Shown: piece after piece, positions 1 to 60,695 of the stretch
Numbering within the stretch: the first letter of the stretch is position 1
How the letters are laid out: every line of letters starts with the position of its first letter
NCBI GenBank assembly: GCA_036172245.1
Contig: JAYWIR010000029.1
Span: 1-64,000, forward strand
Direction: 5' to 3'
Source: Raillietiella orientalis
Lineage: Eukaryota
DNA: 64,000 nt
Made by a program: the position numbers and the translations under genes
Notes under the pieces: generated by a model
Seen by the model: only the letters and a program-made list of their open reading frames with translations
Told to the model about the DNA's origin: nothing
The model's database searches: none

Positions 1-1284
1 GTTTGGAACATGTTCGCGGCTCCTCTCCTCCGTTCCTTTATTTTTGTTTGCTCCCCCACAGAGAGGATCAAAAAGCGGACGAGGGACCTCCTCCGTGTCG
101 CCCTTTGGGGCAACGGGAGGGCCTGAGTCCGCTTGAAGGACTTGTGCGCTCCGCGTCGGGACGGTGGTCTTGGCCTCCTGACATTCGAGCGGCTGAAGCT
201 GCAGCTCCAGTTCCGGATTTTGGCACTTGTGCCGGAGTTGTAGTGCATTTGTTGGTGCGTCCCTGCATGTCTCCTCCTTCAGCAAGCCACCGGCAAGACG
301 GGATTTACGTCGTTTCTCGGACTCCACCGAAGCCGCATCAAGCGATGTGGGCTTCAGCTACGGAGGGTGGCTGCGCTGGCAAGGAAAAATCAAGGATGGA
401 TCACCAGTCTCCCCGCGAACGGTAGTGCCTGGTTGCAGGAAACCGTTCGCACGTGGGGACAGTTCGGCATGCAACCCTCCCATCAGGAACGAAGGTTCCT
501 GTTTGGGTGTTACAGAAGTTGCACGCTCCGGGAGATCCTGGAGGATCCTAAGAAGAGAGCGTGGTCAGGAAGAACCCCCCTTGCTGCTGCGCTGGACTCC
601 CTAGTGGAACATCAGGACAGCGATGTTGCGGCAAAGTGGGAGGTTACAATAAAATTCTCCGGGAAGGAGAAGAAGCAGAGAGAGTGGAAGACGGGCCAGC
701 TAACTGATGCTGCGACCCCGAGTTCGCCTCCTAATGGACTTCTGCGCTGGGGAGCGCTGCTGGATGTTCCGATTGAACATCTGAAGTGGCCCCCGTTTCT
801 TATGGACACTTCCATCCTCCCCCTAAAATGGCAGAAGTCGACTTTCCTGTTGCAGCACTGGGGACTCCCCTGCAACGCCCGTCGACACCACTGGACCTGG
901 GGAGCAGTGGATCCCAATTGTGTAAGGTGCGGGGAACGGGAGTCCCTCTCCCACCTCCTAGTGGATTGTGTTGCCCTTCGGCCCCTTTGGTTCCGCTTTG
1001 CCGCGGCCATCGGTATCCCTTGCAGCAACCCCAGGGACGCACTAAAAGCCTTCTTCGTTGCCGACGCCCTGCGGCCAGCGTCCTCGATAGCAGCCTTGTG
1101 CTGCCTTCGTGGGATCGTCGCCTCCTGGAGCACGGCGACAGGAGGACCTAGCGATCAGGAAGCCATCCAGTGCGCCTCCGAATTCCTGAGGAGGGCGTTT
1201 CGATGGCGCCACCTGGATGTTCACAACAAACAAGAGCTTGCCAGCATCCTGAGAGGGATGATGCGGCCCCAGCAGCAACAGTGA
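1..1284 (+). pseudogene. ORF2 C-terminal part (post-RT region and zinc finger), in-frame stop at 124-126
   Basis: Frame 1 reads VWNMFAAPLLR...ALWGNGRA*VRLKDLCAPRRDGGLGL and continues into ORF 367-1284. Confidence 0.88.
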
Positions 1285-1502
1285 TCTCTTCCCGTTCCCT
1301 CCCACCCTTTGTTTTTTTTTGTTTAGTTTTTTTCTTTTTCCCCTTTCCCCTGCTGTCTTGGTGGACCGTACCGGTCTAGAAACCGGTGAATTGGCAGGCG
1401 CCGTGGTTCTTAGCTTCTGGCTGGAGCATTGCCACAGCCATTAATAATTTGTTTACAAAGTTTATGTTTTTAATAAACGACTCGGAGAAATCCGGGTGAA
1501 AA
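1..1502 (+). mobile_element. 3' part of an A-type L1/Tx1-like non-LTR retrotransposon (continues off the left edge)
   Basis: ORF2 C-terminus with zinc finger CVRCGERESLSHLLVDC, pyrimidine-rich 3'UTR, AATAAA at 1472 and hairpin ACTCGGA-GAAA-TCCGGGT. Homologous to the minus-strand A element ending at 18039. Confidence 0.92.
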
Positions 1503-2336
1503 TCGAAAGCTTTACGCAAATCGACTGCGACCGCAAGGGCTCCAGGCACCGCATCTTCTTCCCGGCTTCCCTCCCCCCTGTCAATGGAGAGTCTAGGACT
1601 TTCCCGACGTAGCTGCGCCTCGCGTTGTTGCAACTGCCAGAATGTGCTGGCGAGGAACGGGTTGGCCTCCATGGTTCGTCCGGGAACAGCGTATGTCTGT
1701 TCCGGACTGACCACGGACTCCGCAACCCGTCCCAGGCGCTCAGCCCATAGCTTGGGGAGCAACTTTGTGTCCGCATTCACTACAGTGATGGGATGCCAGT
1801 TGTCAACGTTGCGCAAGTCTCCTCACTTAGGAAGGAGACGTACTCTAGCTGACCGGAACGATTTGGGGACATCCCCACGTTCACGGATCAGCATACATAG
1901 TTTAAGCACCAGAGGAGCCAGCTCTGCCGCGAAGTGTTGGTAGAATTCAGCTGGCAAGCCGTCTTCCCCTGGTGCTTTGTACTTTTTCATTTTAGTGATA
2001 GCGGAGATTATCTCCGCCATCGAGAATTCTTGGAGGAATATGTTTATTTCTTCCTCCCTCATCGCTGGAGCACCCTCTGGCAGCAGGCGCTGCGCAGAGG
2101 AGCGCTCCGGTGGTCTCACCGCGTGAAGGGAGGGATAAAAATCCCGCAGAATGCGGCAAACCTGCGCTGGAGATACGTGCTCCTGGCCTTCTTCGTCGAG
2201 CAAGCAGGCAGACCCGGATTTCCAGGCCTGCCTCTCCGCTCCAGCCTTCATCTCCGCCAGGCGACGGACGTCGGGGTTGTTGGAGAAACGACGGGCCTGG
2301 AGATAGTTCCTGTCGTTCCTCACGCCTTCGCCGAAA
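1503..2336 (-). pseudogene. Middle of element E ORF2 (FGEG linker to RT motif DLRKAFD)
   Basis: ORFs 1823-2323 and 1376-1816 give KAPGEDG, NWHPITVVN, YAVPGR and DLRKAFD, with one stop at 1823. Joins in frame to 54438-55320 across the CGCCGAAA duplication. Confidence 0.88.
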
Positions 2337-2348
2337 GCCGGTGTGGGT

Positions 2349-2355
2349 GGACGTG
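2349..2355 (+). promoter_or_regulatory. Conserved 5' GGACGTG motif, putative internal promoter element (also at 7188, 8581, 10891, 37301, 39738 on +; 31448, 33760, 35155, 51408, 59129 on -)
   Basis: Present 5-13 nt inside all 11 element 5' ends and followed by a T-rich run. The function is inferred. Confidence 0.6.
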
Positions 2356-2444
2356 TTTTTTGGTCGCTCCGCCAGCGCCTGTCTGGGAAGCAACCGGAGT
2401 TTTTTTAGTGTAGTCAGGTGTTAAGTGTGGGTCGTCGGTGTCCG

Positions 2445-4195
2445 ATGGCAGCCGTGCCAGAGGACACCGCGATGGATGTGGTTGTGGGGGAGGCAAGTCC
2501 TACCACAGGACCTACATCTATGGGGGCAATAGTCCCTGGAACGTCTTCGCAGCCGGCGAAGACTTGGAGTGAAATGGTCGCCGCCCCATTGCGGAGGCCA
2601 TGGCCGAGGAAGCCGCCTATCGGGCCTCTGAATACAAGCCATCGCTTGTATACAAGGTAGGCCCTTTGTTTGAAGGAAACACGGCGCGCTCTTTCAGCAG
2701 AGCGCTACAAAATGCTAATGTCCGTGAGGAAGATCTGGACGGTCTGTGCGTGCTCAGCGGGGCGCAGCGGGTTGAGCTGATGTGCAAGAGCATCAGCCTA
2801 GCCGATCGCCTTATAAATACCACGCTGATCATGGACGGCCGTAAGATCTTCCCGGTGTCAATGGACCACTCGGTAGTGGTCCACTTGACAGGAATATCCA
2901 AGCGCATGTCGCGCACTGCCGTAAAAGCAGAATTAAGTAAGTACGGGGACGTACACGTGCTGTGGCCGAAGCCCACAATCTTTGAGGGCTACGGACGCCA
3001 CTTCGGGGGCTTGGCTGCGGCACACGTAACCCCAAAAAACGAAGCGAAGCTACCCCACAAACTTGAGGTCGCGGGAGAACCAGTAGACCTCTGGTATGCT
3101 GGCAAGCCACGGTATTGCGGCTACTGCGATGCGGTCGGACACATCCGTAAGAGGTGCCCGAACATCGTATGCTACTTGTGCGGGGAGAAGGGACACGTCC
3201 GTCGCGTGTGCCCTAAACGCCCCACCCCAATTTCCTCGGCCGCCAAAAAGGCGCAAGCGAAACGCGCGGGGAAAGAAAAATTAGAAAACCGTGAAACTGG
3301 CCGAGAAAAGCTGCCAATAACCCAAGCTCCAAGCGCGGCATCGGAGAAAAATCTTCCCGAAACCGCAGAGGGTGAACAGGGCTGGCAGCTAGTCAAAGCC
3401 AAAAAAGAAAAAAAGGACAAGCATGTCCCGAAGAAAGGAGAGAAGGCGGCGGCCGGAACAAAAGCTCAATCCGTGTCGCGCGTAAAAACTCTCCGAGAAT
3501 GCACGGTTACGCTGGAGCGCATTGACGTTCCCGCCGACACCACCGGAGGCGATACGGCTTCGATCGATTTTCCCGCCGCGACGAATGCGCGCGAAAACCC
3601 ACCCCCCGTTTGCGAAGAGGGTCAGCCGGACGACAAAATCGCCGAAACCAAGGACGCAGCCTTCGAGAAGGCCGCCGAGGAGCTTGCGGCAACGCTTGCC
3701 GAACGCGAGAACCCTTCGCGAAAGGGGTTGCGTAGGCCGGCAGCGGCTAAAGTGGCCCCCGCAGGTGAGTCGGACCGGGAGGCCGGAAGTGCATCCTCCT
3801 CTGCGGAAGCACCACCAAGGAAAGCGGGGCGAAAATCCCAGAAACCCCGAAGGTGCATTGCGCCTCCGCGCGAGGGGGATGCAATGGTGGAGGAACCAGT
3901 GGATGGCAGCGTGGGAGCCCAAGTCGGGCATCACCCACGTGCGGAAGCCGACGAGGAGGCGACTCCAATGGAGGAGGGTAACCAGGGGTCAGCAATGCCC
4001 TCTGAAACCGCCGAACCTGAACCACCCGCACCAATGGATGTGGGCCAACAGGTACGAACAACACCCCCTTCGCACGGGCAGCCGGAGACGTCGGCACGAA
4101 AGAAGGATGGGGAGTTGGTGGGCAAGACGCCAACCCCGTCCAGCGACCCGCCCCAAAAGGTGGCGGGAGCTCCACCGCCAGGTTCCCAGGAATAA
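2445..4195 (+). pseudogene. B0 ORF1, zinc-knuckle nucleic-acid-binding protein, one frameshift near 2585
   Basis: MAAVPEDTAM start in ORF 2418-2660, continuing in ORF 2600-4195 with knuckles CGYCDAVGHIRKRC and CYLCGEKGHVRRVC. Confidence 0.88.
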
Positions 4196-5077
4196 CACCT
4201 GGACTCGCCTGTCGCCGTCGGATCCGCGCGGCCAGTTGGAATGTTAACGGGCTGCGCGACGACGGAAACAGACGAGATACAGCCGCCACCTTGCGAGATT
4301 TCGACCTGGTACTTTTGCAGGAGATCCACGTGATCACCGCAAAAGACGCCCAGGAGATCGAAACGATTGCGGGAGGGCGGTTGTACTGGCGATGCGGCGC
4401 CCGCAACACTTGTGGGGTCGCGTTCTTCCTAAAGCCAGCCATTAACGCGGCCGTGAAGGGCGTGCGCTTTGGGGACGACGGACGGATCGGCCAACTGATT
4501 CTCAGATGGTCCGATTCGATCGACCTCATCGTCACCAATGTGTACGCTCCTAGCGGTAAACAGGGATACCAGCAGCGCAACGCGTTACTGGAAACCTTGA
4601 AGCGCGAATGGCTGGTGGACGCGGACGTGCGAAAGGCGCATCTGATAGCAGGGGATTTCAACGTCCGTCTGCTCTCAGATCAGCCCGGAGCACAGGGTAA
4701 CGCGATCAACGAGTTGTGCGCCGCCATGCGCGCGCGCAACTTGTTGACAGAAATAAGCGGGATGGTCAGCAGCGTGGACCACGTCTTCCTCGACGAAGAC
4801 CTGTGCACACGGGTCGGAAAACGAGGGACACTTGGATCGACGCTGTCGGACCATTCCCGGTTAGTTTTCGAGATGCGCCCGCGCGACAAGGGACCGCCAT
4901 CCAGGGATTGGCGTATGCCAGGGGACTAGACGCGCCTGTCAGGAGCGAAAGAACATCTTCGCGAATTCCTGCGAGGCGTCAGCCTCCAGAGTCTCGCGGA
5001 TTCCGACCTATTTAAGGACTTGGTAAGGGAGTTCTGCGAACAGTTCCCTATGCAACGTCTGCCCCGGGGATTCGGCG
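4195..5077 (+). pseudogene. B0 ORF2 N-terminus, APE endonuclease (no ATG; stop at 4927)
   Basis: Reads TPGLACRRRIRAASWNVNG, LLQE, TNVYAP, AGDFN, VDHVFLD, LSDH, LPRGFG. Confidence 0.88.
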
Positions 5078-7176
5078 TTATCACCCGGGTACGCCCGGGC
5101 CGTTTATTAATGAACTTTACATGCGTGGTACAAAGCCCCACCACGGCCGTAAACACAGAACCTGTCGGGACACCGGGACGCAGCCCGGCGTGGCACTCCC
5201 CGACAGCGAAGGGGGATGGGGATAAGACAAAAAGTAAAATAAAAAGAAACAAACAAAAAGAAGTTGGAGGGCAGGGAAGGGATCACTAGTCGCTGTGGGG
5301 AGGGCCCATCCGTCGAACGAAGCCCTCGAGGTCAGTCTGCATATTCCCCAGTTGGGGCCATCCGGCAGCTCTTCGCAAGAAGCGTTTGGCATACGGGATG
5401 ACATCCCTCGCCTGTGGACCCACTCCTTCGTTGTTGGCGTTGCTCCATGCCCCCACAATGCCACGGACGCAGCACAAGGCTGCGATGGCTGCGGCTGGCT
5501 GCAGTGCGTCCTTCACGAAGAGGGGCCGAAGAACGTCTCTGGGGGTGCTGCCCGTAGGGAGCCCGAGGGTCGTCCCGAACCGTTCCCAAAGGGGTCGTAG
5601 GGCAGCAGAATCCACAATAAGGTGGGGAAGCGACTCCCGCTCCCCGCACCTGGCGGACGCAGGATCCACAGCTCCCCTCGTCCAGTGGAAGAGGCGCGCG
5701 TTGCAGGGTAGACCCCAGTGCAACAAAAGAAACGCCGACTCTTGCCACTTGAGAGGCAGGATCCTCGATTCTTTCATCATCGGGGGCCACTTCAGCTCAT
5801 CCCAGGGGATGGCGAGCAGCTCGCCCCATCTTAATAATCCTCGCGGCTGGACGCTCAAGGTCGTGGCGTCGGCCAGTTCTCCTGTTGTCCAGCCGCTGAT
5901 CAACTTCTTGCGTCCCTCGATGCAGCAGGAGACTTGCCACCTTGGCGTCCGGGTGCTGTGAAGTGCCCGTCTTAGGAAGGGCAGCGCCGTTGCTAGGCAG
6001 GTCGTCTCTGCCCACGTGCATCTTGCTGGACTCTCCAGGAGATTCCGCAGTGTGCAGCGGGCGTAGGGGCTGCATCGGAGAAGATTCCACGTCTCCTGGC
6101 TTCTCTGGTTAACTACTGCCCACGTTCCAATATTCTCCTCCAGCCAGGCGGGAAAGTTGGCGGGGCAGCAAACCATCCAGCTGTTCTCCTTGGCCAATGT
6201 TACCATCCGCCCGAGCAGTAGGCCGCATCTTCGCATCTTCCGGCCACGGCTCAGAAGAAAAGACGCGAGTCCATCGCACCGGGACACACGGCTGGCCAGG
6301 AGGCGGGCCGGAGTGCACCAAGGGGTACTCCACATCTTCGCTGCGATGGCGAGGGTTCGCCACCGCAGCTGCCATGGGCTCCAGCGTCTGGAGAATAAGA
6401 CCGTCGTCCCGACGCGGATCGCGCAAGTCCTTCAGAGGGACTCGGGGCCTCCCCTTGCCCCAAAGGGCGTTGCAGAGGAGTTCCTTTCTCCTCTTTTTAA
6501 TTACTCCTGGGGCGGGGCAAACAAAAAGCAAGAAGCGGAGGATGAGGGCCGCAAAATCGTTCCAAACCGCGGCCCGTTCCGGCAAGTGAAACTTGCCTTC
6601 CAGGAACGGGCCGATCGCCGTGTCGACTTTTTGAAGACAGCTGGACCACGCTTCCGCAGGGGAGTAGTCACCCAACAACACACCAAGGTACTTGAGGCAC
6701 CTCGCCGTGGGGATCCCCAAACGGAACCAGTCCTGCTGCCCTGCCCACGCTGCACCTACTGGCACCAACGACGACTTCGCCCTGTTGACCTGCAGTCCGG
6801 TACCATGGATGAGCAGATCGAAGAAGTCTCCGGCCGCCTTCGCCGGGGTGGACATTGGCAACAAAAGCAGAAGATCGTTGGCGTTCCCTGCTACCGCGGG
6901 AGTGCCGGGGCACGAGATCGGCAATGGGGCCAAAGTCACCCTGTACGCTCTCAGCACCAACTCAAAGTAGGTGCTGAAGAGCAGGGGGCTGAGGCTATCT
7001 CCCTGCCTTATGCCCCGCCGCATTGGCACGCCATACACCTTTTGTCCGCTGAAAGAGACGATAATTATCGCATTCTGCCAGCAAGAGCGCAGGTAGGAAA
7101 TCAGGGAGGGTTGAAAGCCCATGCGACCCAGAAGCTCCAAGAGGAGTTCCTGGTCTACACAGTCGAACGCCTTGTG
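5078..7176 (-). mobile_element. 3' half of a B element (HKAFD to 3' end), frameshifted ORF2
   Basis: ORFs 6109-7140 and 5286-6335 (RRGIRQGDSLSP, YLG, zinc finger) plus the 3' AATAAA-hairpin at 5078-5108. Near-identical to 35173-37276. Confidence 0.92.
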
Positions 7177-8567
7177 CGCTCTAGGGTGGACGTGTTTTCT
7201 CGGTGCTCCTCGTGCCAGGAAGTCTCCCCCAGTGCAAGCGTCGTGTGGTTCGCTGGTCGATCAGGCGGCGATGCCTGACGCGACCACCAGGGATAGCCAG
7301 GGGGCAGCGGCAACGCATCCCCCAGAGGCGATGGAGAGCCAGAAAGCGGCGGAAACGTCGCCCCCAGAGGCGATGGAGATGGGGGCATCCGCCCCCACAG
7401 AATCGGTCCCCGCTGCAGCGCGGGCGTGGAGCGCCGTTGTGTCGGCGCCATCGCCTGCAGCCGCGGCGGAATTGTCGGCCTATGTAGAGGAGGGGTACAA
7501 CCTCTTATTGTTCTACAAGGTAGGCAATTTATATTCTTTAGAGAGCGCGCGCGCCTTCTCGAAGGGCATGCGCGCTCTCGATGTGAAAGAGGAGGAGCTC
7601 AGCGCTATGACCATCCGCAGCGGGAATCAGTACGTTGAAGTCATCTGCAAACAAGCAGAGCTGGCCCAACGACTGCTTAAAACACCCGTGGTGATGGGGA
7701 CGCACAGGCTGCTCCCTATTACGGCGGACCGCAGCATGGTGGTCCACCTGTTAGGTGTTACCACGCGGATGCGCAAGGAACAGGTTCGCGCCGCGTTGGA
7801 GGAATACGGAACGGTCCACGCGCAGTGGACGAAAGTTAGTCCTTTCGAGGAATACACGGGGCTGCAACACGGCCTCACTGCTGCGCGCGTGACCGTTCGG
7901 GAAGGGAGCACTCTTCCGCACAAACTGGTGCTCGAAGGCGAAACCGTCGACCTCTGGTATGTGGGGAAGCCGAAATACTGTGGCTTCTGCAATACGTCGG
8001 GCCACCTCAAAAAGAGGTGTCCCAATGTGCAGTGCCAAGTATGCGGCACAATGGGCCACACGAGGGAGGTGTGCCCAAAAGCAGCAGTGCGGGTGGTTTC
8101 CAAGAGAAACCTAAAAAACGCGCCCGGCTTCTGCAGAAAAGACTGGCGGCGAAAGCTGCCGCGAAGGCTGTGCCACCCGCGCCCAAGACCCAGGCCGCAC
8201 CCGAGACCCCGGCGACCAACGCCGAAAAAGTTGAGGGAGCCGGCCAGGAGACTGAGTGGCAAGTGGCAACAGCCAAAAAATCAAAGAAGGAGAAGAGGAT
8301 GGAAAAGAAAATCGCCTACCAGCAGAAGAAGAAGGAGCAGGGTAGCGCGATAATTAAAGAGTGCAGCGTCGTTGTCGAACGCGTTCTCGATGTTGCCGAA
8401 CGCTGCCGGAAAGAATTCGCCGCTACCGACGACCTCCCTCTGTTGACACAGTCAACAGCGAGGGGAGCGAGCCGGCGGCGGCGTCCGTCATCGACACCAC
8501 CATCGATGACGTAGCCTTCGCGCGAGCCGCGGAGGAGCTGGCAGCCTCGTTGCAGCCAGAACCCTCC
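7177..8567 (+). mobile_element. 5' part of an A element: 5'UTR and ORF1 from ATG 7271 (MPDATT...), frameshifted, cut at LQPEPS by B1
   Basis: GGACGTG at 7188; knuckles CGFCNTSGHLKKRC and CQVCGTMGHTREVC; inverted copy of 33780-35172. Confidence 0.9.
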
Positions 8568-10884
8568 GCGATCAGTTGGAGGACGTGTTTTTCCTTCACT
8601 CCTCAAAGGGTAGTAGGAAAGCGCTTTCTTCTGTGTGGTGTTTTGTGTACATCGTCGGTGTCCAATGGCCACGACGCCAGAGGACACCGCGATGGAGGTT
8701 GGAGTGGGGGAGGCTAGTTCGCCCCCACAGCCTACTGGAGCAGGGGCAGCCGCCCCGGAATCATCCCCGGCCACGCCGAGGACATGGAGCTCCATGGTGG
8801 CCGCGCACAGCGCAGAAGCCATGGCGGAGATGGCCGCATACAAGGCCTCCGGGTACAAGCCATCGCTTGTCTACCAGGTAGGCAACTTGTTCGACGGCCG
8901 GACAGCGCGCGCCTTCAGCAAAGCGTTGAAGCACGCGAATGTTGCAGAGAAGGATCTGGACGGCCTCTCCGTCCTCAGCGGCGGGCAGCGGGTCGAGGTG
9001 GTCTGCAAAGATGTCACCTTGGCTCACCGCCTAATCCATGCGCCGCTGAACGTAGACGGCCGCAAGATCCTGCCAGTATCTATGGACCGCTCCGTGGTGG
9101 TCCACATGACTGGCATCACCAGCCGCATGACGCGGTCAGCGGTTGGTGAGGAACTAAGAAAGTACGGTGAGGTGCACGCACTGTGGCCGAAACCCTCCAT
9201 TTTCGACGGCTTCGATAGCCTTTTTGGTGGGCAGGCTGCAGCGCGGGTCACCGTACGGGAGAATTGTGGGCTTCCCCACAAACTACAGGTGGCGCAAGAA
9301 AACGTCGACCTGTGGTATGTAGGGAAGCCCCGGTATTGCGGGCATTGTGATACCGTGGGACACCTACGTAAAAGGTGTCCCAATATACAATGCCATTTGT
9401 GCGGGGAGCGGGGCCACGTTCGGAGCGTGTGTCCCAAACGCCCCACCCCGGTTCCCCCTGCCGCGAAAAAAGCGCAGGCGAAACGTGCTTCGAAGGTCTC
9501 TAGACCTAAAGTAGAAAAGGGCCAGCACAAGCTACCAACACCTCAACCTCCGGAGCGTAAGCCGGAGGATAAACCTTCTGAAACGGTGGAAGGCGAAGAG
9601 GGATGGAAGCTTGTAGAGGCCAGAAAGCCGAGGAAACTCCCTCCCGCGGAGAGCAAAGAGCGCAAGACGGCCGGTAAGCCGAAAAAACCCGGTCCGCGCT
9701 CGAAAACTCTGCGCGAGTGCACGGTGGCACTAGAACGAATCGTCGTTCCCGAGATTGCCACCCGGAGCGTCGATCCTCCCCTTGCCGCTTCCGCTGCGCC
9801 CGAGGCTCGCGACGGCGAACCCTCTGTTTACACAGAGGGTGAGCCGCGCGACATAGCGGCGGTCGAAGCCGCGGACGCCGCGTTCGCGCAGGCGGCGGAG
9901 GAGCTCGCGGTCACGCTGGCCGAGCGCGAGAACCCCTCGCGCAAGGCCGTGCGAAGGCCGGCTCCGGCGAAGAAGGCCCCCACAGGTGAGTTAGACCTGG
10001 GGGCCGGAAGTACATCCTCCTCCTCGGAGGCACCCTCCAGGAAGTCGGGACGCAAGTCCCAGAAGCCCAGGAGGCGCCTCCCCTCCACCAGCGAGGAGGA
10101 GAAGACGGAAGCCGTCGCCAGCGTGGGAAATTCGGAGGAAGAATTCCCACGCTCGGAAGCCGTCGATGCGGCCACCCCCATGGAGGAGGGTGAACAGGGG
10201 GGTGAACTCCCCCCTGCAGGCGCCGACCCTGAACAGCCCGCCCCCATGGAGGAGGGCGAACAGGTAGGCGCGACTCCACCTGCGGGTGATCCGGCCGACG
10301 CGCCGGCACCGATTGGGGAGGGGGACCAGGTGCCTTCAGCACCTGACCCCCCTGCTCCACCTAGCGTCCCGCCTCAGCAGGTGGCGGACGCCGCACTGCC
10401 ATCTTCCCAGGAGTAACACCTGGGCTCGCCAGTCGCCGTCGGATTCGCGCGGCCTGTTGGAATGTCAACGGGCTGCGCGACGACGGTAACAGGCGAGATA
10501 CAGCCGACACCCTGCGGGAGTTCGACCTGGCCCTGTTGCAGTAGATCCACGTGATCACCGCGGCAGACGTCCAGGAGATCGAGACGATCGCGGGGGGTCG
10601 GCTGTACTGGCAATGCGGCATCCGCAACACCTGCGGGGTCGCGTTCTTCGTGACGCCGGCCATCGACGCTGCCGTGAAGGGCGTGCGCTTCGATGACGAC
10701 GGTCGGGTCGGTCAGCTGACTCTCGGCTGGTCCGACTCGATCGATCTGATCGTCACGAATGTGTACGCCCCAGCCGGTCAAAAGGGATACAGCAACCGTA
10801 CCAGGCTGCTTGAATCCCTGAAGCGCGACTGGCTGGCGAACACGAGCGTGCGGAAGGCTCACCTGATAGCGGGCGATTTCAATC
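8568..10884 (+). mobile_element. 5' part of B1 element (5'UTR, ORF1, endonuclease to GDFN)
   Basis: GGACGTG at 8581; ORF1; ORF2 starts TPGLASRRRIRAACWNVNG at 10416 with a stop at 10541; ends at ATTTCAATC. Confidence 0.92.
8665..10416 (+). CDS. B1 ORF1, intact gag-like zinc-knuckle protein (583 aa)
   Basis: Uninterrupted frame from MATTPEDTAMEV with knuckles CGHCDTVGHLRKRC and CHLCGERGHVRSVC and a PMEEG-repeat tail. Confidence 0.9.
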   Translation: MATTPEDTAMEVGVGEASSPPQPTGAGAAAPESSPATPRTWSSMVAAHSAEAMAEMAAYKASGYKPSLVYQVGNLFDGRTARAFSKALKHANVAEKDLDGLSVLSGGQRVEVVCKDVTLAHRLIHAPLNVDGRKILPVSMDRSVVVHMTGITSRMTRSAVGEELRKYGEVHALWPKPSIFDGFDSLFGGQAAARVTVRENCGLPHKLQVAQENVDLWYVGKPRYCGHCDTVGHLRKRCPNIQCHLCGERGHVRSVCPKRPTPVPPAAKKAQAKRASKVSRPKVEKGQHKLPTPQPPERKPEDKPSETVEGEEGWKLVEARKPRKLPPAESKERKTAGKPKKPGPRSKTLRECTVALERIVVPEIATRSVDPPLAASAAPEARDGEPSVYTEGEPRDIAAVEAADAAFAQAAEELAVTLAERENPSRKAVRRPAPAKKAPTGELDLGAGSTSSSSEAPSRKSGRKSQKPRRRLPSTSEEEKTEAVASVGNSEEEFPRSEAVDAATPMEEGEQGGELPPAGADPEQPAPMEEGEQVGATPPAGDPADAPAPIGEGDQVPSAPDPPAPPSVPPQQVADAALPSSQE

Positions 10885-10962
10885 GAGTGCGGACGTGTTT
10901 TTCTTCGCTCTCGTCTCCGTGCTTTCATCCGCTTCATCTTGGCGTCGTACATTTTGACGACG

Positions 10963-49000: not shown

Positions 49001-49679
49001 ACATGATCCGACCATGGTCCGACAGCTCGGATGGTACCTTGCCGCGCCCGCCCACCCGAGAGCATAGGTGCTGATCAAGGTACACGTGATCGATGCTGCT
49101 TTCCATGGCCGTGTCCCCGGCCAACAAGTTGCGCGTGTTCATTTCTGCGCACAACTCGTTGACGCGGTCGTTCAGTGTATCCGGCGCACCTGAAAGCAGG
49201 CGCCGGTTGAAATCACCTGCGATCAGGTGCGCTTTGCGAACTCCTGCATCGGTCAGCCAATCGCGTCTCAGGGCAAGGTAGAATTCCCTTCTTGCCTTCG
49301 CCTTCAACGCGTTATTTCCGCTAGGAGCGTATAGGTTGGTGACGACCAGGTCGATAGAGTCGGACCAGCTGAGAGTCAGCTGACCCACGCGACCTGCGTC
49401 ATCGAACCGAACGTCCTTTATTGCGGTGTCGATGGCTGGCCGAAGCAGGAAGGCGACACCGCTTGATTTCGCGGTGCCGCAACGCCACAACAGCCGCCCA
49501 CCCGAGATCCGTTCGATCTCCCGGGCTTGATCTGCGGAGATCACGTGGATCTCCTGCAGCAGCACCAGGTCGAAGGATGCCAGGGTGGCGGCCACGTCAC
49601 GCCTCTTGCCGTCGTCGCTTAGCCCGTTCACGTTCCAACAGGCGATCAGAAGACGACGCCGAGAGGCGATTCCCGGCAT
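46100..49679 (-). pseudogene. D ORF2 (APE-RT-zinc finger), two frameshifts in the C-terminal third
   Basis: ORF 47286-49679 (797 aa; WNVNG, GDFN, SDH, KAFD, YADD), then 46423-47730 and 46100-46555. Confidence 0.92.
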
Positions 49680-51337: not shown

Positions 51338-51419
51338 TTCTGCCTAATCCTCCACCCACACCACGCACAAGCACCAACGGAAATGGAACTCAGGAGCAAC
51401 GAAAAGACACGTCCGCTCG

Positions 51420-54230
51420 ACGCTCCGGAATCTCCAAGACTGGGACCTTTTTAAGGAATCGGTCCGGGAGTTCTGCGAGCAGTTCCCCCTGGATCGCCTG
51501 CCCCCCGGATTCGGCGAGGGTGCTCGCAACCATCAAGCCTATTTACAGGCTCGTAGGTACGAGAGAACCCCTAATGTCCGTCGCCTGGCCGAGTACCGCG
51601 CCGGGGCCAAACGCCAAGCCTGGCAATCCGGGTCGGCCAGCTTGCTGGACGACCAGGGCCGGGAATGTTCGTCCCCGGCGTCGGTACGGCATCTCGTGCG
51701 GAGTTTTTATTCCTCCCTTTACGCCAGGGAGCCCCCGGATCGAAACGCCTTTCGACGCTTGCTTCCGGATGGCACCCCGGCAATAGGGGAGGAGGAGATG
51801 GAAAGCCTCGACGAGCCTTTTACCACCGGCGAAATTCTCGCCGGTATCAAAAGGCTCAAGAGGCGTAAAGCTCCAGGGGAAGACGGCTTACCCGCGGAGT
51901 TCCTTCAGAGCTTCGCGGAAGAGCTGGCACCCCTGCTGCTTAAGTTGATCAGGCTGATCCGAGACGAAGGCGATGTTCCCGCCTCGTTTCGGTGAGCCAG
52001 AGTGAGGCTCCTTCCGAAAGGGGGAGACCTCAGGAATTTAAAGAACTGGCGTCCGATCACAATCGTGAATACGGACGCCAAGTTGATAGCAGGGCTATGG
52101 GCTTCGCGTCTGGGGCAGGTGGCAGAATCCGTAATTAGCCCGGAGCAGACTTATGCTGTTCCCGGGTGAAGTATGGATGCCAACCTCGTCTTCGCAAGCA
52201 CATGGGTGCACCTGCAGAGAAGAGAGAAGAAAGGGATAGGGAAAGTCGGCAACCCCACATTGGGGCCGCCAGCCGGGCTGGGAAGGGACCCCCGGGCAGG
52301 GAAGGGGGCCCTAGCGCTCGCAGTCGATCTCCACAAGGCGTTCGACTGTGTAGACCAGGAACTCCTCTTGGAGCTCCTGGGTCGCATGGGCTTCCCACCC
52401 TCCCTGATTTCCTACCTGCGCTCTTGCTGGCGGAATGCGATGATTACCGTCTGTTTCAGTGGACAGAAGGTGTATGGCGTGCCGGTGCGGCGGGGCATAA
52501 GGCAGGGTGATAGCCTCAGCCCCCTGCTCTTTAGCACCTACTTTGAGTTGGTGCTGAGAGCGTACAGGGTGACTTTGGCCTCCTTGCCGAGCTCGTGCCC
52601 CGGCACGCCCGCCGTAGCAGCGTACGCCGACGATCTTCTGCTCTTCTTGCCAATGTCCACCCCGACGAAGGCGGTCAGAGTCTTCTTCGATCTGCTCAGC
52701 CGCGGGACCGGACTGCAGGTTAACAGGGCGAAGTCGTCAATTGTGCCAATAGGTGCGGCGTGGGCAGGGCAGCAGGACTGGGTCCGTCTGGGGATCCCCA
52801 CGGCGAGGTGCTTCAAGTACCTTGGTGTGCCGTTGGGGGACTACTCCTCTGCGGAAGCGTGGTCCAGCTGCCTCCAAAAAGTCGAGACGGCGATCGGCCC
52901 GTTCCTGGAAGGCAAGTTTCACTTGCCGGAACGGGCCGCGGTTTGGAACGCCTTCGCGGCGTCCATCCTCCGCCCTTTGCTTTTTGTTTGCCCTCCCACC
53001 GTGGAATCCATGAAGAGGACGAAGGACCTCCTCCGTATCGCCCTTTGGGGCAAAAGTAGGCCCCGAGTCCCACTGAAGGACTTGTGCGCTCCGCGTCGGG
53101 ACGGCGGTCTTGGCCTCCTGACGCTGGAGCGCGTGGAGAAGCAGCTGCGGTGGCGAACCCTCGCCATCGCAGCGAAGATGTGGTGCACCCCTTGGTGCAC
53201 TCCAGCCCGCCTCCTGGCCAGCCGTGTGTCCCGGTGCGATGGACTCGCGTCTTTTCTTCTCAGCCGTGGCCAGAAGATGCGAAGATGCGGCCTACTGCTC
53301 GGGCGCATGGCAACATTGGCCAAGGACAACAGCTGGATGGTTTGCTGCCCCGCCAACTCCCCCTCCTGGCTGGAGGAAAATATTGGAACGTGGGCAGTGG
53401 TTAACCAGACAAGCCACGAGACGTGGAATCGTCTTCGATGCAGCCCCTACGCCCGCTGCACGCTGCGGAATCTCCTGGAGAGTCCAGCAAGATGCACGTG
53501 GGCAGAGACGACCTGTCTAGCTACGGCGCTGCCCTTCCTGAAGAGGGCACTTCACAGCAGCCGGACGCCAAGGTGGCAAGTCTCCTGCTGCATCGAGGGA
53601 CGCGAAAAGTTGATCAGCGGCTGGACAACAGGAGAACTGGCAGATGCCACGACCCCGAGCGTCCAGTCGCGAGGACTAAGAAGATGGGGCGAGCTGCTGG
53701 CCATCCCTATGGATGTGCTGATGTGGCCCCCGCTTCTTCAGGAATCCAGGATCCTGCCCCTTAAGTGGAAAGAGTCGGCGTTGCTGTTGTTGCATTGGGG
53801 TTTACCCTGCAACGCACGCCGCTCTCACTGGACAAGAGGAGTTGTGGATCCTGCGTGTGTCAGGTGCGGAGAGCGGGAATCGCTCTCCCACCTTATTGTG
53901 GACTGTGCTGCCCTTCGTTTCCTTTGGGAACGGTTTGGGACGATCCTCGGTCTCCCAACGGGCAGTTCCCCTAGAGACGTTCTTCGGCCCCTCTTCGTGA
54001 AGGACGCCCTGCAGCCAGCCGCAGCCCTTGCAGCCTTGTGCTGCGTCCGAGGCATCGTGGCGGCATGGAGCGACACCAACAAGGAAGGAGTGGGTCAACA
54101 CGCGAGGGATGTCATCCCATATGCCCAACGCTTCTTGCGAAGAGCTGCCGGATGGCCCCAACTGGGGAATATGCAGACTGACCTCGAGGGCTTCGTTCGA
54201 CGGATGGGCCCTCCCCACAGCGACCAGTGA
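51420..54230 (+). pseudogene. B2 ORF2, RT and C-terminal part (two stops before a 685-aa open stretch)
   Basis: ORFs 51642-51995 and 52173-54230 (KAFD, RQGD, YADD, YLG, zinc finger). Confidence 0.92.
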
Positions 54231-54437
54231 TCCCTTCCCTGCCCTCCAACTTCTTTTTGTTTGTTTCTTTTTTTATTTTACTTTTTGTCTCATCCCCATC
54301 CCCCTTCGCTGTCGGGGAGTGCCACGCCGGGCTGCGTCCCGGTGTCATGACAGGTCCTGTGTTTACGGCCGTGGTGGGGCCTTGTACCACGCATGTAAAG
54401 TTTATTAATAAACGCCCCGGGCGTACCCGGGTGATAA

Positions 54438-55657
54438 CGCCGAAACCTGTAGGGAGACGGTTCAGGGGAAACTGGTTGCAGAACTCGCGGACTGAGCTCT
54501 TCATGTCGTTCCAGTCCGCGAGCGACTGCAGATGGAAGCCTTGCAGGAACGAGCGAAGATGTTGCGCTGCTCCTGCGAGGCGCAACCAGTCTCCTGGCAA
54601 ACGCCACGCTGTGGAGGGTGGACCTCTAGCACGCGGGTGTATTTCTAGCACGAGCCAGGGATGGTCGGAAAGTTCGGATGGCACTACCTGTCGATTTCCC
54701 ACCCGCGAACACAGGTGGTTGTCGAGGAACATGTGGTCGATCCTCGTCTCCGTCCCGGCGTCACCGGCCAACAAGTTGCGCGCGTGCATGGCAGCGCACA
54801 TCTCGTTGACCAGCTGTGCGCGAATGTCGGGCGCACCTGCCAGCAGGCGGACGTTAAAGTCCCCGGCAATGAGGTGCGCCTTTCGCATGTCTGCTTCGGC
54901 CAGCCAATCTCGCCGCAGGCCTTCGAAGAACGCAGTGCGTTCCCCGCGCCTGTGGCTCGTGCCGGGCGCGTACACGTTGGTCACGACGAGGTCGATCGCG
55001 TCGGACCACTTGGCAACAAGCTGCCCGATTTGACCTTCCCCGTCGAAGTGCACGTCGCGCAGCGCATTAACGACGGCTGGCTTCAGCATGAAAGCCACAC
55101 CGCGGGTGTGGTCTCTCCCGTTTTGGTATACGAGCCGCCCGCCTGCGATCCGTTCGATTTCCTGGGCCTCCCCTGCGTGGAGAACGTGCGTCTCCTGCAG
55201 AAGCGCCAGGTTGAAGTCCCGCAGGCTGGCGGCCACTTCTCTCCTCTTGCTGTCGTCGCGCAACCCGTTGACGTTCCAACAGATGACGCGCAGTCGCCGG
55301 CAGGAGGAGAGTCCACGCGTTGGTGTGTTTATTGTGCTTGCTTACCGTCCTCCGCCTGCTGTTCAGCAGGCGGGAGTTGTGTATCCATTGCGACGGGCTG
55401 TTGCTCGCAAGGAGGCGGTCCGTCGGTGGTTGTGGTGGTGGTTGGAGGATCCTGCTTGGCCAGGGACGTCTCCGGCGTGGAGTCGCGAGACCTCGCGGAC
55501 ATCGCCTCCCCGTCGTCGTGGTCCGACCGCATTTCCTCCTCCGCCGGTGGAGGTGCGGAGCGCCGCGGGTTGCCTACCTTGCGGCCCGCTTTGCGCTTCG
55601 GGAGAGCGACAGCCGGAGCGCGTGTCTGCCGTTCGCCGCCTGCTAAGGCGCTACTAA
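54438..55657 (-). mobile_element. Element E: ORF1 tail (stop at 55329) and ORF2 endonuclease up to LPTGFG
   Basis: RKAGRKVGNPRR tail; CWNVNG, LLQE, VYAP, GDFN, IDHMFLD and SDH in ORF 54112-55263. Confidence 0.9.
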
Positions 55658-57991
55658 GCCGATCACCTTGGTGAAATCGGACGTCAAGTTGTTCTCCAAG
55701 CTATGGGTCGCGCGTCTGGGGAGAATCGCGGAGTCCTTGGTGAGTCCGGAACAGACGTATGCTGTTCCGGGGCGGTCCATGGACGCGAATCTCTTCTTCG
55801 CGCGAACATGGTTCGAGTTGCAGCAGCGCGTGGCGCAGCAGAGCCAGGCAGCCGAAATCGCCGCTGCCAAAGGCAGGCGGCGGTGTTCAAGGCACGATGG
55901 AACGCCGGGAGCCTTAGCGGTCGCCGTCGATCTCTGGAAACCGTTCGACAGCGTAAACCAGCACCTCCTTCTGGAGCTTCTGGGACGCCTAGGCCTCCCG
56001 ACGCACCTCATCGCCTACTTGCGCTCCTGCTGGCGCCACGCGTTATGCTGTATCTCTTTTAGCGGGCGCCACGTGTACGGCATTCCCATACGGCGGAATA
56101 TCAGGCAGGGAGACAGCTTAAGCCCCCTGCTCTTCAGCGTCTTCTTTGAGTTGGTGCTGAGCGCGTACACGCTGACGCTGGCCAACCTGCCGAGGTCCTG
56201 CCTGGGATCACCGGCCGTGGCCGCCTATGCTGACGACCTTCTCTTGCTGCTGCCCATGTCCACGCCGGCGTCCAGGCTCGAGGACTTCTTCGAGCTCATT
56301 CGTCGGGGAGCGGGCCTGAGCGTCAACAGGACGAAATCAACCGTTGTACCGGTTGGCTCTACGTGGGAGGGGCAGTCCGACTGGATCCGCCTGGGGATCC
56401 CCACGGGCAGGTGCTTGAAGTACCTCGGCGTTCCCTTGGGCGCCTTCTGTCCAGCAGAAGCGTGGCCGGACTGCCTTCACAAGGCCGAGACTGCTCTGTG
56501 CCCGTTCCAAAGCGGCAGGTTACTCCTGTCGGAACGGGCCTTCGTGTGGAACATTTTCGTTGCCCCCCTCCTCCGTCCCCTCTTTTTTGTTTGTCCCCCT
56601 CCCTACTCGGCTAAGCGCCGGGCGCAACGCCTGTTGCGTTACGCCCTTTAGGTCCAGGATACGCCTGAAGGAGTTGGCGGCTCCTAAGCGGGATGCAGGA
56701 TTGGGCATCCTGACGCTGGAGCGGATCGGGCTTCTAGTGCAGTTCCGCATGCTGGCACTTTGTGCGCAGCTCTGGACTACTCCCTGGTGTGCTCCAGCGC
56801 GGCTGCTGCTGCGGCGCTGCACGGGTGGCGACGGACTACGTTCGTTGCATCTGCGCACGGAGCGCGCCCAGAGAGGATTCGGCTTCCCTTTGAAGCAGCT
56901 CGCCACGCTTCTGGGAAAGCATGAGTGGATCTCCTGCCGGCCGACGAACTTCAACGCCTGGAGGCAGGAAGCCTTATCGTCCTGGGCAGCGCAACAGGAT
57001 GTGTCCCGTTTGGAACTCCGTTGCGTGAAACTTTCCCCATACTGTCCAGTGGGGGAGGTGCTGGAAGACCAGGACCAGTGGACACGCCTAGCCGCTACGC
57101 CACTCGCCGAAGCACTGTGTGCACTGATGGTGCGAGATGACAGTGACCTGCCGGCGAGGTGGGAGATCACTTGCGAAATCGCAGGCGAAAGCCGACTGCT
57201 GGGCGGCTGGCGGACTTGCGAAGTGGCAGACGCTGCCACACCTCGCCTTCGTGCCAAGGGACTTCTCCGGTGGAGTGAGCTCCTCGGGGTGCCCACCGAT
57301 GAACTTGTGGTCCCTTCTGCGTGTTTGGACGCGACTCTCTTCCCCCTTCGGTGGAAACAGGACGCTTTTCTGCTGGTGCATTGGGGTTTGTACTGCAACC
57401 AGCGGGCGCACCTAATTTCCGGGGGAGTTGCTTCCCCGAACTGTGCCCAATGCGAAGCGGTGGAATCGCTTCCGCATTTGCTGTTTGAGTGCGGTGCCCT
57501 CCAGGATCTGTGGCAGCGGCTGTCTTCAGCGCTCCTGCACCCCGGACACACCGCACTCGATTGGATGCGCCGCTTCTACACGCGTGGCGGTCTTTCTCTT
57601 GGAGCGGTCGTCGCAATCATCTGCTGCGTCCGCGCCATTGTCAGGGCTTGCCACGTATTGCAGATGCGAGCAGTCCCAACATCGGTCCCCGACACCGCAG
57701 CCTGCAACCTGCAAATGGCTGCCGGGTGGCCACACCTGGGAGCAGAAGTGAGGACGGAGATCGGCGGCATTCACCGCCGGTTCTGAGAACAGGAACGGTT
57801 AGATGTATACCCCTATCCCCGCCCTCCCACCCAATTTATTTATTTATTGTCCCACCCCCTCCCGTTCCGAACTCTCAGTGTACCCGGCCTGCGTTCCGGG
57901 AAATCTACTCCCCATTTCCTGTTCCCCTTGTCTGGGAACACAGTTCCCAGTTGATATTCAGAATAAACGTTTCGGCGCAACCGGGTAATAA
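55658..57991 (+). mobile_element. 5'-truncated F element (C-related), ORF2 RT to zinc finger (stop at 57786) plus 3'UTR
   Basis: ORFs 55668-56651 and 56560-57786; 3' AATAAACGTTTCGGCGCAACCGGGTAATAA. Confidence 0.9.
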
Positions 57992-59146
57992 ACGACAACG
58001 CTGCATTCTTCAATTTGCTCACTTGCCTGCTGTTTTTTCTGGCGGTGTGCGAGCTTTTTCTCTAATCTTCTGTCCTTCTTTGATTTTTTAGCCGTTGCCA
58101 CTTGCCACCCAGTCTCCTGGCCGGCTCCCTCAACTTTTTCGGCGTTGGTCGCCGGGGTCTCGGGTGCGGCCTGGGTCTTGGGCGCGGGTGGCACAGCCTT
58201 CGCGGCAGCTTTCGCCGCCAGCCTTTTCTGCAGAAGCCGGGCGCCTTTTTTAAGGTTTCTCTTGGAAACCACCCGCACTGCTGCTTTTGGACACACCTCC
58301 CTCGTGTGACCCATTGTGCCTCATACTTGGCACTGCACGTTGGGACACCTCTTTTTGAGGTGGCCCGACGTATTGCAGAAGCCACAGTATTTTGGCTTCC
58401 CCACATACCAGAGGTCGACGGTTTCGCCTTCGACCACCAGTTTGTGGGGAAGAGTGCAGCCCTCCCGAACGGTCACGCGCGCAGCCGTGAGGCCGTGTTG
58501 CAGCCCCGTGTAGTCCTCGAAAGGATTAACTTTCGTCCACTGCGCGTGGACCGTTCCGAACTGTTCCAGAGCGGCGCGAACCTGTTCTTTGCGCATTCGC
58601 GCGGTCACGCCTAACAGGTGGACCACCATGCTGCGGTCCGCCGTAGTGGGGAGAAGCCTGCGCGTCCCCATCACAACGGGGGTTTTAAGCAGTCGTTGGG
58701 CCAGCTCTGCATGTTTGCAGATGACCTCAACGTACTGACTCCCGCTGCGGATGGTCATAGCGCTGAGCTCCTCCTCTTTCACATCGAGAGCGCGCATGCC
58801 CTTCGAAAAGGCGCGCGCGCTCTCTAAAGAATAAAGGTTGCCTACCTTGTAGAACAATGAGGGGTTGTACCCCTCCTCTACATAGGCCGACAATTCCGCC
58901 GCGGCTGCAGGCGATGGCGCCGACACAACGGCGCTCCACGCCCGCGCTGCAGCGGGGACCGATTCTGTGGGGGCGGATGCCCCCACCTCCATCGCCTCTG
59001 GGGGCGACGTTGCCGCTGCCTTCTGGCCATTCCTGGTGGTCGCGTCAGGCATCGCTGTCTGATCGACCACCGAACCAAACGACGCTTGCACTGGGGGAGA
59101 CTTCCTGGCACGAGGAGCACCGAGAAAACACGTCCACCCTGGAGCA
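57992..59146 (-). mobile_element. A-type 5' end and ORF1 N-terminal part (ATG 59052), probably the 5' end of element E
   Basis: GGACGTG at 59129-59135; ORF1 nearly identical to A until KKSKK; abuts CGCAAGGCGTTCGA. Confidence 0.85.
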
Positions 59147-60561
59147 CGCAAGGCGTTCGATTGCGTGGACCAGGATCTCCTTCGGGAGCTCCAGGGACGC
59201 ATGGGCTTCCCTGCCTCCCTACTGACCTACCTGCGCTCTTACTTGCGCAGCGAGCTAATTAATATCTCTTTCAGAGGTCAAATGGCGTACGGCGGGCCGT
59301 ACGGCAGGGCGATAGCCTGAGTCCCTTGTTCTTTAGCACCTAGTTCGAGTTGGTGCTGAGAGCGTACAGGGCGACTTTGGCTGCCTTGTCGTGCTCGTGC
59401 CCCAGCACGCCCGCTGTAGCAGCATACGCCGACGATCTTCTGGTGATGTTGCCTATGTTCGCCCCGGCAGCCTCAGTCGTGGGCTTCTTCGATCTGCTAA
59501 GCCGTGGTACTGGACTGCGGGTGAACAAGGCAAAGTCCTCGGTGGTGGCGACATGAGCTGGACGGCCTTACTGGTTCCGTTTGGTGATCCCCACGGTCAG
59601 GTACCTGAAGTACGTGGGCGTCCCGTTGGGGGACTTCTGCTTCGCATAAGTCTGGTCAGGTCGTCTCCGAAAAGTAGAGTTGGCGATCAGCCTGTTCTTT
59701 GAAGTCAAGTTTCTCCTGTCGGAACGGGCTGCGGTGTGAAACGCGTTCGCGGCTCCAATCCTCCGCCCCCTGCTTTTTGTTTGCCCCTTCCCGCGCCAGT
59801 TGAAAAAATGGACGAAGGACCTCCTGAGGATCGCCTTTTGTGGAAGAGGGAGGCCCCGATTCCCGTTGAAGGACTTGTGTGCTCCGCGTTAGGATGGCGG
59901 TTTCCGCCTCCTGATGCTGGAGCGAATGGAGATCCGGCTGCGACGGCGCACCATGGCCATTGCAGCGAAGTTATGAAGCACCCCATGGTGCATTCCGGCC
60001 CGCCTCCTTGCCAGCAGTGTATCTGGGACGCAAGGTCTTGCTTCGTATCTTCTGTGCCGTGGCCGGAAGATCTATAGATGCGGCCTTCTCCTGGGACGCA
60101 TGGCCTCTCTGGCTAAGGAGAACGGCTGGATGGAATGCAGCCCCGCCAACTCCTCCGCATGGCTGGAGGAGACAACTTGCACGTGGGTGAAGATAAACGA
60201 GAGCAGCCACGAGATGTGGAACTGCCTGCAACTCGGCGCCTACTCCCTCTGCACTCTAGGGAAGATACTCGATTGTCCCGCGTGGAGCACGTGGGCAGAA
60301 ACAACCCCCCTAGCTACGGCGTTGCCCTTCCTGAGGAGGGCGCTCTCCATCAGCCGCATGCCTAGGTGGCAAGTCTCCTGCCGTATCGCAGGCAGAGAGA
60401 AGCTGATGAGCGGCTGGACCATAGAAGAACTGGTGGATGCCACGACCCAGGGTGCCCTCCCGCGTGGACTAGAAAGATGGGGGGACGAGCTGCTCGGCAT
60501 CCCTATGGATGACCTGAAGTGGCCCCTGGTTTTCATTGGTTCCAGGATCCTCCCTCTGAAG
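59147..60561 (+). pseudogene. Decayed B-like ORF2 (RKAFD to post-RT region), outermost host on the right
   Basis: RKAFDCVDQ, AYADDLL (ORF 59350-59556) and ORF 60100-60645; many stops and deletions. Confidence 0.82.
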
Positions 60562-60695
60562 CTGGCCGATCCGGACTGCCTGGCTTGTTTCTCGACTCCC
60601 GCTTTGTATTCCGCTAGCCTGAGGATGTCGGGGGTCCTTGCTTAACGCCGGGCCTGTAGATAAGACCTTTCGTTACGGACTCCGTCCTCAAATTT
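60559..60695 (-). pseudogene. Short inverted A-like ORF2 linker fragment
   Basis: Reads FEDGVRNERSYLQARR*ARTPDILRLAEYKAGVEKQARQSGSAS. Confidence 0.75.

Follow-up and report, generated by a model that had tools for sequence, protein, structure and literature searches.

The first 64 kb of contig JAYWIR010000029.1 from Raillietiella orientalis (assembly GCA_036172245.1, positions 1 to 64,000 of the forward strand; the whole stretch is called the window below) are largely made of long interspersed nuclear elements (LINEs) inserted into one another, which raises the question of whether these elements select the places at which they enter each other, or whether the coincident junctions arose by the copying of DNA or by chance. 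At two sites, the KAFD codons of the reverse transcriptase (RT) and the GFG codons of the linker between endonuclease (EN) and RT, at least three independent insertions per site have struck one and the same phosphodiester. It is probable that two lineages integrate by sequence-specific target-primed reverse transcription (TPRT) into conserved codons of the second open reading frame (ORF2) of sibling LINEs, with the apurinic/apyrimidinic-type endonuclease (APE) presumably supplying the specificity. Such recurrent insertion at the same spot in the enzyme genes of relatives could explain how LINE piles build and renew. All of the evidence comes from this one window, and the LINE map combines tblastn with two ORF2s, blastn with three reference elements and 23 junction read-outs.

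By these three means, positions 1-60566 were found to be covered without gaps by about 23 L1-type LINE fragments, so that the roughly 60 kb of nested LINEs described by an earlier, sequence-only reading of the stretch are indeed there. The 60.6-kb nest has a GC content of 0.593, versus 0.493 in the right flank. Among eight long ORFs scanned against Pfam, two contained Exo_endo_phos together with RVT_1 and two more RVT_1 alone, with a weak zf-RVT; in ORF2 the APE endonuclease is N-terminal and RVT_1 follows, and the translations show the catalytic motifs CWNVNG, LQE, GDFN, SDH and YADD. The best match among solved structures was human LINE-1 ORF2p (8sxt, E 5.8e-43, query RT region 349-728). Because of the APE and RVT_1 domains and this match, the elements are assigned to the L1 superfamily as APE-type LINEs. 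A zf-CCHC domain was found in the A1 ORF1 only, and the ORF1s of B, C and E/X had no Pfam match. At least five related LINE lineages, about 65-72% identical to one another outside conserved stretches, are nested together in the window: E/X (X1, E_L, E_R+X2, X3 and E3), B (P, Q1, R, Q3/S and P3), A (A1 and A2), C (C1-3, with the relative D) and an older host, H1. Their parts follow one another as listed here (aa, amino acid; nt, nucleotide; TSD, target-site duplication; UTR, untranslated region).

1-1502, plus strand: X1, 3' part of an E/X-lineage element with ORF2 C-terminus, 3'UTR and tail GAAAA; its 5' part lies outside the window and its 3' end adjoins the KAFD of H1.
1503-2341, minus strand: H1, older LINE ORF2 piece reaching exactly from GFG to KAFD (aa ~305-584), interrupted by X1 at KAFD and by A1 at GFG; 74% identical in nt to B, X2 and X3.
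2342-5077, plus strand: A1, A-type, comprising the full 5' end, an ORF1 with a CCHC knuckle and aa 1-307 of ORF2; its 5' flank is the GFG of H1, and it ends at its own GFG, where P inserted.
5078-7176, minus strand: P, B-type 3' part from KAFD to the 3' end, tail GATAA, antisense at the GFG of A1 and cut at KAFD by E_L.
7177-8567, plus strand: E_L, E/X-lineage 5' part with 5' end and ORF1 up to LQPEPS; its 5' end adjoins the KAFD of P.
8568-18038, plus strand: Q1 5' and middle parts, B-type at 8568-10884 and 16787-18038, with C1 (10885-16786) in sense at GDFN, TSD ATTTCAATC; stops at KAFD.
18039-22220, minus strand: X2, 4.2 kb forming the 3' part of the E/X element that starts with E_R; its tail GAAAA adjoins the KAFD of Q1.
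22221-33779, minus strand: R, complete B-type element, tail GTAAA, carrying C2 (25569-31460) at GDFN; sense in E ORF1 (LQPxPS), TSD of ~5 bp, CCTCC; its own KAFD and GFG are uninterrupted.
33780-35172, minus strand: E_R, 5' portion of the E/X element that X2 completes; at its 5' end it meets the KAFD of Q1-3'.
35173-37276, plus strand: Q1-3', 3' part of a B-type element that runs from KAFD to the tail GATAA.
37277-37289, no strand: GFG remnant, the 13-bp target CGCCGAATCCCCG, flanked by the Q1 tail on one side and the 5' end of Q3 on the other, from insertion in tandem at a single site.
37290-45882, plus strand: Q3 5' and middle parts, B-type at 37290-39731 and 45544-45882, with C3 (39732-45543) at GDFN.
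45883-51419, minus strand: X3, full-length E/X element of 5.5 kb with tail TTCAATAAA, antisense in Q3 at aa ~280; 13-bp TSD GATTCCGGAGCGT.
51420-54437, plus strand: S, the rest of Q3 from aa ~277 to tail GATAA, KAFD uninterrupted; its 3' end adjoins the GFG of A2.
54438-55658, minus strand: A2, A-type ORF1 C-terminus and ORF2 aa 5-307, ending at GFG; 73% identical to A1.
55659-57992, plus strand: D, relative of C (~70% in nt), 5'-truncated at ORF2 aa ~486, tail AATAAA; left flank A2 ORF1, right flank E3 ORF1.
57993-59146, minus strand: E3, 5' portion of a third element of the E/X lineage; its 5' end adjoins the KAFD of P3.
59147-60566, plus strand: P3, the diverged 3' part of a B-type element that begins at KAFD, with 78.5-80% identity to P, Q1-3' and S.
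60558-60700, minus strand: old LINE fragment from aa ~350 back through GFG, running on into lower-GC sequence.

The KAFD string AAR-GCN-TTY-GAY occurs 12 times in the window, and five of the 12 lie at junctions. Two of these are 3' junctions (1502/1503 and 18038/18039), both with the tail GAAAA followed by TCGAA(A/C)GC(T/C)TT, and three are 5' junctions (7176/7177, 35172/35173 and 59146/59147), where host sequence takes up again 14 nt upstream of the nick. Each of the five inserts runs antisense to its host, and all lie on one shared phosphodiester, ...TTCGA^. E_R and X2 are halves of one element split by R, since the homologous positions are adjacent in the uninterrupted X3, and their insertion in Q1 is the sole one at KAFD with both ends visible; its 14-bp TSD, CACAAGGCGTTCGA, stands at the X2/Q1 edge and is repeated at 35173-35186. 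The GFG site is represented by four loci, all at TTCGGCG^ with antisense inserts: a 5' junction (2341/2342, A1 in H1), two 3' junctions in A1 (5077/5078) and A2 (54437/54438) with the tail GATAA followed by CGCCGAA, and the remnant at 37277-37289. Both 5' junctions are 13 bp from the nick, which gives a 13-bp TSD, and one locus consists of a B tail, 13 bp and the next B 5' end, a tandem pair that sandwiches a TSD.

Element C is inserted in sense at GDFN in three copies (10885-16786, 25569-31460 and 39732-45543), each with the 9-bp TSD ATTTCAATC, and a B 5' end stands at LQPxPS of E ORF1 in two copies (8567/8568 and 33779/33780), with a matching 3' junction at 22220/22221. The junctions that the earlier reading had placed at KAFD (five), GFG (four loci), GDFN (three copies) and an ORF1 LQPxPS site could thus be located, the last in two copies, and orientation is constant at each site. 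The TSDs (14 bp for E/X in Q1, 13 bp for X3, 9 bp for C and ~5 bp for R), the fixed orientation and the defined 3' ends fit TPRT.

These 3' ends are common to all lineages and consist of AATAAACG, 11-12 nt, CCGGGT and an A-rich tail of 5-9 nt; the tails at all 11 ends are GAAAA, GATAA, GTAAA, AATAAA or TTCAATAAA, with no poly(A). AATAAACG has 13 matches in the window versus 0.63 expected, 11 of which are element 3' ends, the other two lying inside X3 ORF2 and over the D tail. At the 5' ends, GGACGTGYTTTY has 11 matches versus 1.55 expected, every one at an element 5' terminus, and the 5'-terminal motif GGACGTGTTTTT is present on 11 of 12 visible 5' ends, D alone being 5'-truncated. This last motif is common to lineages that are otherwise ~65-72% identical and is preceded by 5-13 variable nt (for example at 2349, 7188, 8581, 10891, 37301 and 51403); it may serve as an initiator or as a signal for processing of the 5' end. 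The X3 tail at 45883-45891 includes TTCAAT, a part of the C target ATTTCAATC, and may be a short 3' transduction from a progenitor at a GDFN site. A 3'-terminal hairpin was also considered; the prediction gave only four pairs, without compensatory change, and it is not claimed.

Junctions that coincide may still descend from a single event, and independence was judged on the principle that one insertion copied as DNA should show equal divergence of host and insert. At KAFD, the inserts E_L and E3 (junctions K3 and K4) are 93.5% identical and their hosts P and P3 78.5%, while X1 and X2 (K1 and K2) are 86.2% identical and their hosts H1 and Q1 74.2%; at GFG (G2 and G4), the inserts P and S are 91.3% and the hosts A1 and A2 73.0% identical. 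Overall, the inserts compared are roughly 91-94% and the hosts roughly 68-75% identical. Binned at 100 bp, identity rises abruptly just at the junction: at 7177 it climbs from 69-85% to 88-100%, and at 5080 from 58-71% to 79-99%. This unequal divergence, stepping at the junction, indicates that the recurrence at KAFD and GFG is no duplication artefact. KAFD has therefore received at least three independent insertions (X1 in H1, E_R/X2 in Q1 and E3 in P3), with E_L in P possibly a copy of the E_R/X2 insertion in Q1, and GFG likewise at least three, in which A1 entered H1, P entered A1 and S entered A2. The 5' end of Q3 at the GFG remnant is then either one more insertion, the fourth, or S's opposite end. 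By our own arithmetic, with ~5.5 kb and two orientations per host, the chance that two further independent insertions match one nucleotide is ~1e-8 per site.

One alternative is a homing-like spread at the DNA level, in which ectopic conversion or recombination between homologous ORF2 flanks would carry an insertion to the same position in another element, yielding identical junctions with inserts more alike than hosts. Conversion or recombination does operate here, for the B copies are mosaic: along the element, Q1 and R are 97, 94.9, 97.9, 91.3 and 84.1% identical, and Q1 and Q3 69.8, 89, 91.8, 95.9, 96.4 and 96.8%, which points to recombinant elements or gene conversion. Yet the hosts beside the junctions are only 58-75% identical in 100-bp bins, a poor substrate for homologous repair, and a co-converted host tract sought in such bins next to the 7177 and 5080 junctions was not found; moreover, the TSDs and the tandem TSD sandwich are TPRT signatures. 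We regard such spread as improbable. Within the mosaics, Q1 is nearest to R over its 5' two-thirds (97%) and nearest to Q3/S over its 3' third (96-97%, versus 84% to R), and the first 1.4 kb of Q3 is only 70% identical to Q1 and R. A 57-bp tandem repeat of about three copies lies in Q3 ORF1 (38587-38774), where the identity to Q1 shifts from ~70% to ~89%.

That each site was hit once and then multiplied by segmental duplication, without any site specificity, is very unlikely for KAFD and GFG, and it would fit the other two sites. The window holds a 13-kb inverted duplication (5065-18038 versus 37289-24317, 94% identity) and a B+C composite in three copies (9874-17126 versus 38718-45883, 90%), and these blocks carry the GDFN and LQPxPS junctions and one KAFD junction without an identity step. 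Identity between the two 13-kb copies varies from 84 to 99.6% per 250 bp, a patchiness that suggests clusters of mutations or converted patches and not ageing at an even rate; across the C junctions of all three composites it is smooth. Since no step marks their junctions between copies, the entry of C into B at GDFN and that of B into E at LQPxPS are counted as one demonstrable event each, and an origin of the mirrored 13-kb blocks by recursive independent insertions was set aside on the same ground. A copied block should diverge equally on both sides of a junction, and the KAFD and GFG junctions do not, their host and insert sides being 15-23 percentage points apart; in addition, the X1 junction at KAFD and the A1 junction at GFG (K1 and G1) have a different host, H1, and the latter also a different insert family. 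Descent of all same-site junctions from single copied insertions, which the earlier reading had named as evidence against itself, is thus contradicted by the identity steps at KAFD and GFG and would fit GDFN and LQPxPS. The inner boundary of the 13-kb duplication falls exactly at KAFD (18038 and 24317). The C-in-GDFN composite occurs in three flank contexts, for example that of R, which has a TSD of its own in E ORF1, and that of Q3, which lies between GFG flanks, and either an 11.5-kb B+C composite was trans-retrotransposed or C struck one nucleotide repeatedly.

Regional integration, for example by tethering to centromeric chromatin as proposed for centrophilic retroelements, would leave the coincident sites to chance or to a loose endonuclease preference. 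Zepp and ZeppL are reported to lie in a single cluster on each chromosome, and CENH3 to associate with ZeppL (PMC3446292; bioRxiv 10.1101/2025.03.28.645958), and three insertions in our window are at non-recurrent sites. Regional targeting cannot, however, put at least three independent insertions on one phosphodiester in one orientation at two sites, so that it is highly implausible as the whole explanation, while it could act besides sequence specificity. A mis-joining of repeats at short conserved stretches during assembly is conceivable in so repetitive a region and is very improbable, since the joins link element termini to internal host codons with TSDs and not two homologous conserved stretches.

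Several observations weigh against sequence-specific insertion in a strict form. The data come from a single window. X3, which belongs to the E/X lineage and has a different tail, sits at aa ~280 of a B element with a clean 13-bp TSD and not at KAFD, so that the specificity would be a strong preference or would depend on the subfamily; R, of the B lineage with tail GTAAA, entered E ORF1 with a ~5-bp TSD, and D entered E3 ORF1. Seven of the 12 KAFD strings are uncut, including those of S and C1-C3 with an identical 14-mer, and GFG is uninterrupted in all three B copies and all C copies. The 13-kb inverted duplication and the mosaic B copies show that DNA-level processes are active, so that the locus has been remodelled by duplication, gene conversion or recombination. 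Finally, the nests remain unclosed: A1, P and E_L each lack their second half; the Q1 flanks disagree (LQPxPS at the 5' end versus GFG at the 3' end), and the two flanks of Q3 differ at five of 13 bases.

The reciprocal targeting proposed by the sequence-only reading is accordingly narrower than it appeared. Insertion of E into B stands, with at least two events at a recurrent site, and so does insertion of B into E, as one event with a 5-bp TSD that is not at a recurrent site. The claimed insertion of D into B does not hold, because the 3' flank of D is E ORF1 and its 5' flank A ORF1. These flanks, at 55658/55659 (A2 ORF1) and 57992/57993 (E3 ORF1), come from different elements and are not contiguous, which implies a deletion or rearrangement at the D insertion. 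Of the multi-family network, site-specific insertion is upheld for two lineages, and the full reciprocal scheme of five families only in part. That each family uses a sequence its relatives cannot easily mutate, and inactivates a competitor by doing so, may in part be true.

How sequence-specific TPRT into sibling ORF2s could proceed may be outlined as follows. E/X-type elements would nick the sense strand in the RT motif-A codons AAG GCG TTC GA^C (KAFD), giving an antisense insert with a 14-bp TSD; A- and B-type elements would nick the sense strand in the EN-RT linker codons GGA TTC GGC G^A (GFG), giving an antisense insert with a 13-bp TSD; and C would nick the antisense strand of its host, giving a sense insert. 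By analogy with R1Bm and Tx1-clade elements, the APE of each lineage may recognise about 13-14 bp. The tails GAAAA and GATAA share no microhomology with the primer ends ..TTCGA and ..GGCG, so that RNA-DNA base-pairing does not account for the site. Each new insert would carry its own ORF2 and thereby add new target copies, and the cluster could therefore grow inward without touching host genes and would be self-confining. Duplication, recombination or gene conversion at the DNA level would later have multiplied the GDFN and LQPxPS junctions, and the B+C composite was possibly trans-mobilised.

The targets encode the RT motif-A region, the EN-RT linker and the GDFN motif of EN, which are similar across lineages otherwise ~65-72% identical, and the choice of such constrained codons may be adaptive. 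A far-reaching extension, which we offer tentatively and think doubtful, is that of a closed, self-renewing LINE community in which each endonuclease is tuned to its own constrained block (RT motif A, EN-RT linker, GDFN or the ORF1 site), building and maintaining a centromere-type cluster without any host-encoded target and escaping its own nuclease by synonymous changes beside the nick. At B's own uncut GFG (17200, 25155 and 51507) the sequence reads TTCGGCG^AGGGT, with Glu as GAG, and at the cut H1 site (2338) TTCGGCG^AAGGCG, with Glu as GAA. The only target of D corresponds to GTCG^AACGCG in E_L. From these few sequences, a common core CG^AA(G/C)GCG may be proposed, with self-immunity through synonymous change.

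On the right, the edge at 60695, where the earlier reading ended the nest, is not a GFG junction; the minus-strand fragment there continues into lower-GC sequence. A degenerate RT at 63000-63990 in the right flank (tblastn, E down to 7e-9) indicates that the LINE-derived region reaches beyond 60695. The observed/expected CpG ratio of the flank (60700-64000) is 0.84, versus 1.0 in the cluster. The ORFs of the right flank had no Pfam match, and an Rfam search gave no matches.

Outside this assembly, the protein searches gave only two close relatives. P0001, a protein of 619 aa encoded on a JGI metagenome contig of 2.9 kb, shares 75% identity with X3 ORF2 over the RT and has an intact KAFD, which indicates that relatives of the cluster elements occur in an environmental sample; P0168 is 65% identical. 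Neither ends at a junction. P0093 was ruled out as a relative, being an unrelated, internally repeated LINE. A metagenome scan with an unspecific 14-base pattern shared by the 3' ends gave no related locus by tblastn or blastn among the at least 120 listed, and a protein scan found only two distant endonuclease-like matches, from bacterial metagenome-assembled genomes, among public genome contigs and none among viral contigs.

If sequence-specific insertion into sibling ORF2s is true, the cluster serves as its own target and expands into nothing but itself, which would provide a simple mechanism for self-confined, centromere-associated LINE islands in green algae. Competition of parasite on parasite would then be written at the codon level, and natural APE endonucleases with 13-14-bp specificity would be directly assayable.

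Among known systems, human LINE-1 ORF2p has the same order of APE and RT and is the nearest solved structure by sequence. In human L1, nicking occurs at loose TTTT/A sites and poly(A) is used. Unlike human L1, the elements described here have a fixed 3' end (AATAAACG..CCGGGT followed by GAWAA) and long, specific sites. In architecture, the cluster resembles Zepp and the ZeppL of Chlamydomonas, as far as the available text describes them, in that L1-type LINEs are nested as a GC-rich island, here 59% versus 49% in the flank. According to the accessible parts of the reports, Zepp of Coccomyxa subellipsoidea C-169 forms nested clusters, one per chromosome, with a GC content of 61% versus 53% in the genome, and only 'hotspots' or a chromosomal function are offered there as the cause of nesting (PMC3446292); Zepp is listed with an (A)n tail (PMC3747384), and its arrays are mostly 5'-truncated 3' ends (PMC8226300, citing Higashiyama 1997). 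As far as those descriptions go, our cluster differs in its A-rich tails of 5-9 nt without poly(A), in the full length of 11 of its 12 visible 5' ends, and in holding several lineages with nucleotide-exact sites in ORF2 codons.

With the Tx1 clade, as covered by the available text, the elements share the APE type, recurrent insertion at one sequence of a repeated element and the TSD sandwich, a likeness of insertion habit. Tx1L inserts in Tx1D, Tx1-Mar in Mariner-N4_AMi, Tx1-8_Crp and Tx1-4_AMi in retrotransposons with long terminal repeats (LTRs), and Keno in U2 (PMC4494074, PMC4640811); tandem copies of SINEU-3, mobilised by Tx1-Mar, sandwich a TSD, and the choice of target in the clade is ascribed to the endonuclease (PMC4494074). 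Whereas the Tx1-clade targets named in these sources are DNA transposons, LTR elements, small RNA genes and microsatellites, those described here are catalytic or linker codons of sibling LINEs and are re-created with each insert. The maintenance of several lineages side by side in one conserved multicopy target recalls R1/R2 in 28S rDNA and Utopia/Keno in U2, in which unrelated families converge on one site (PMC4640811), and the R1Bm APE is reported to be sequence-specific in vitro (PMC1919474). In those systems host selection preserves the target, which is a host gene, whereas here constancy would come only from the protein constraints of the elements themselves. Our literature search, outside which the original and possibly relevant Zepp descriptions lie, returned no account of LINE lineages homing to the RT or EN motif codons of other LINEs. 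The cluster may be seen as a variation on target-specific L1/Tx1-like and Zepp-like elements, in which conserved ORF2 codons of sibling LINEs would serve as the target.

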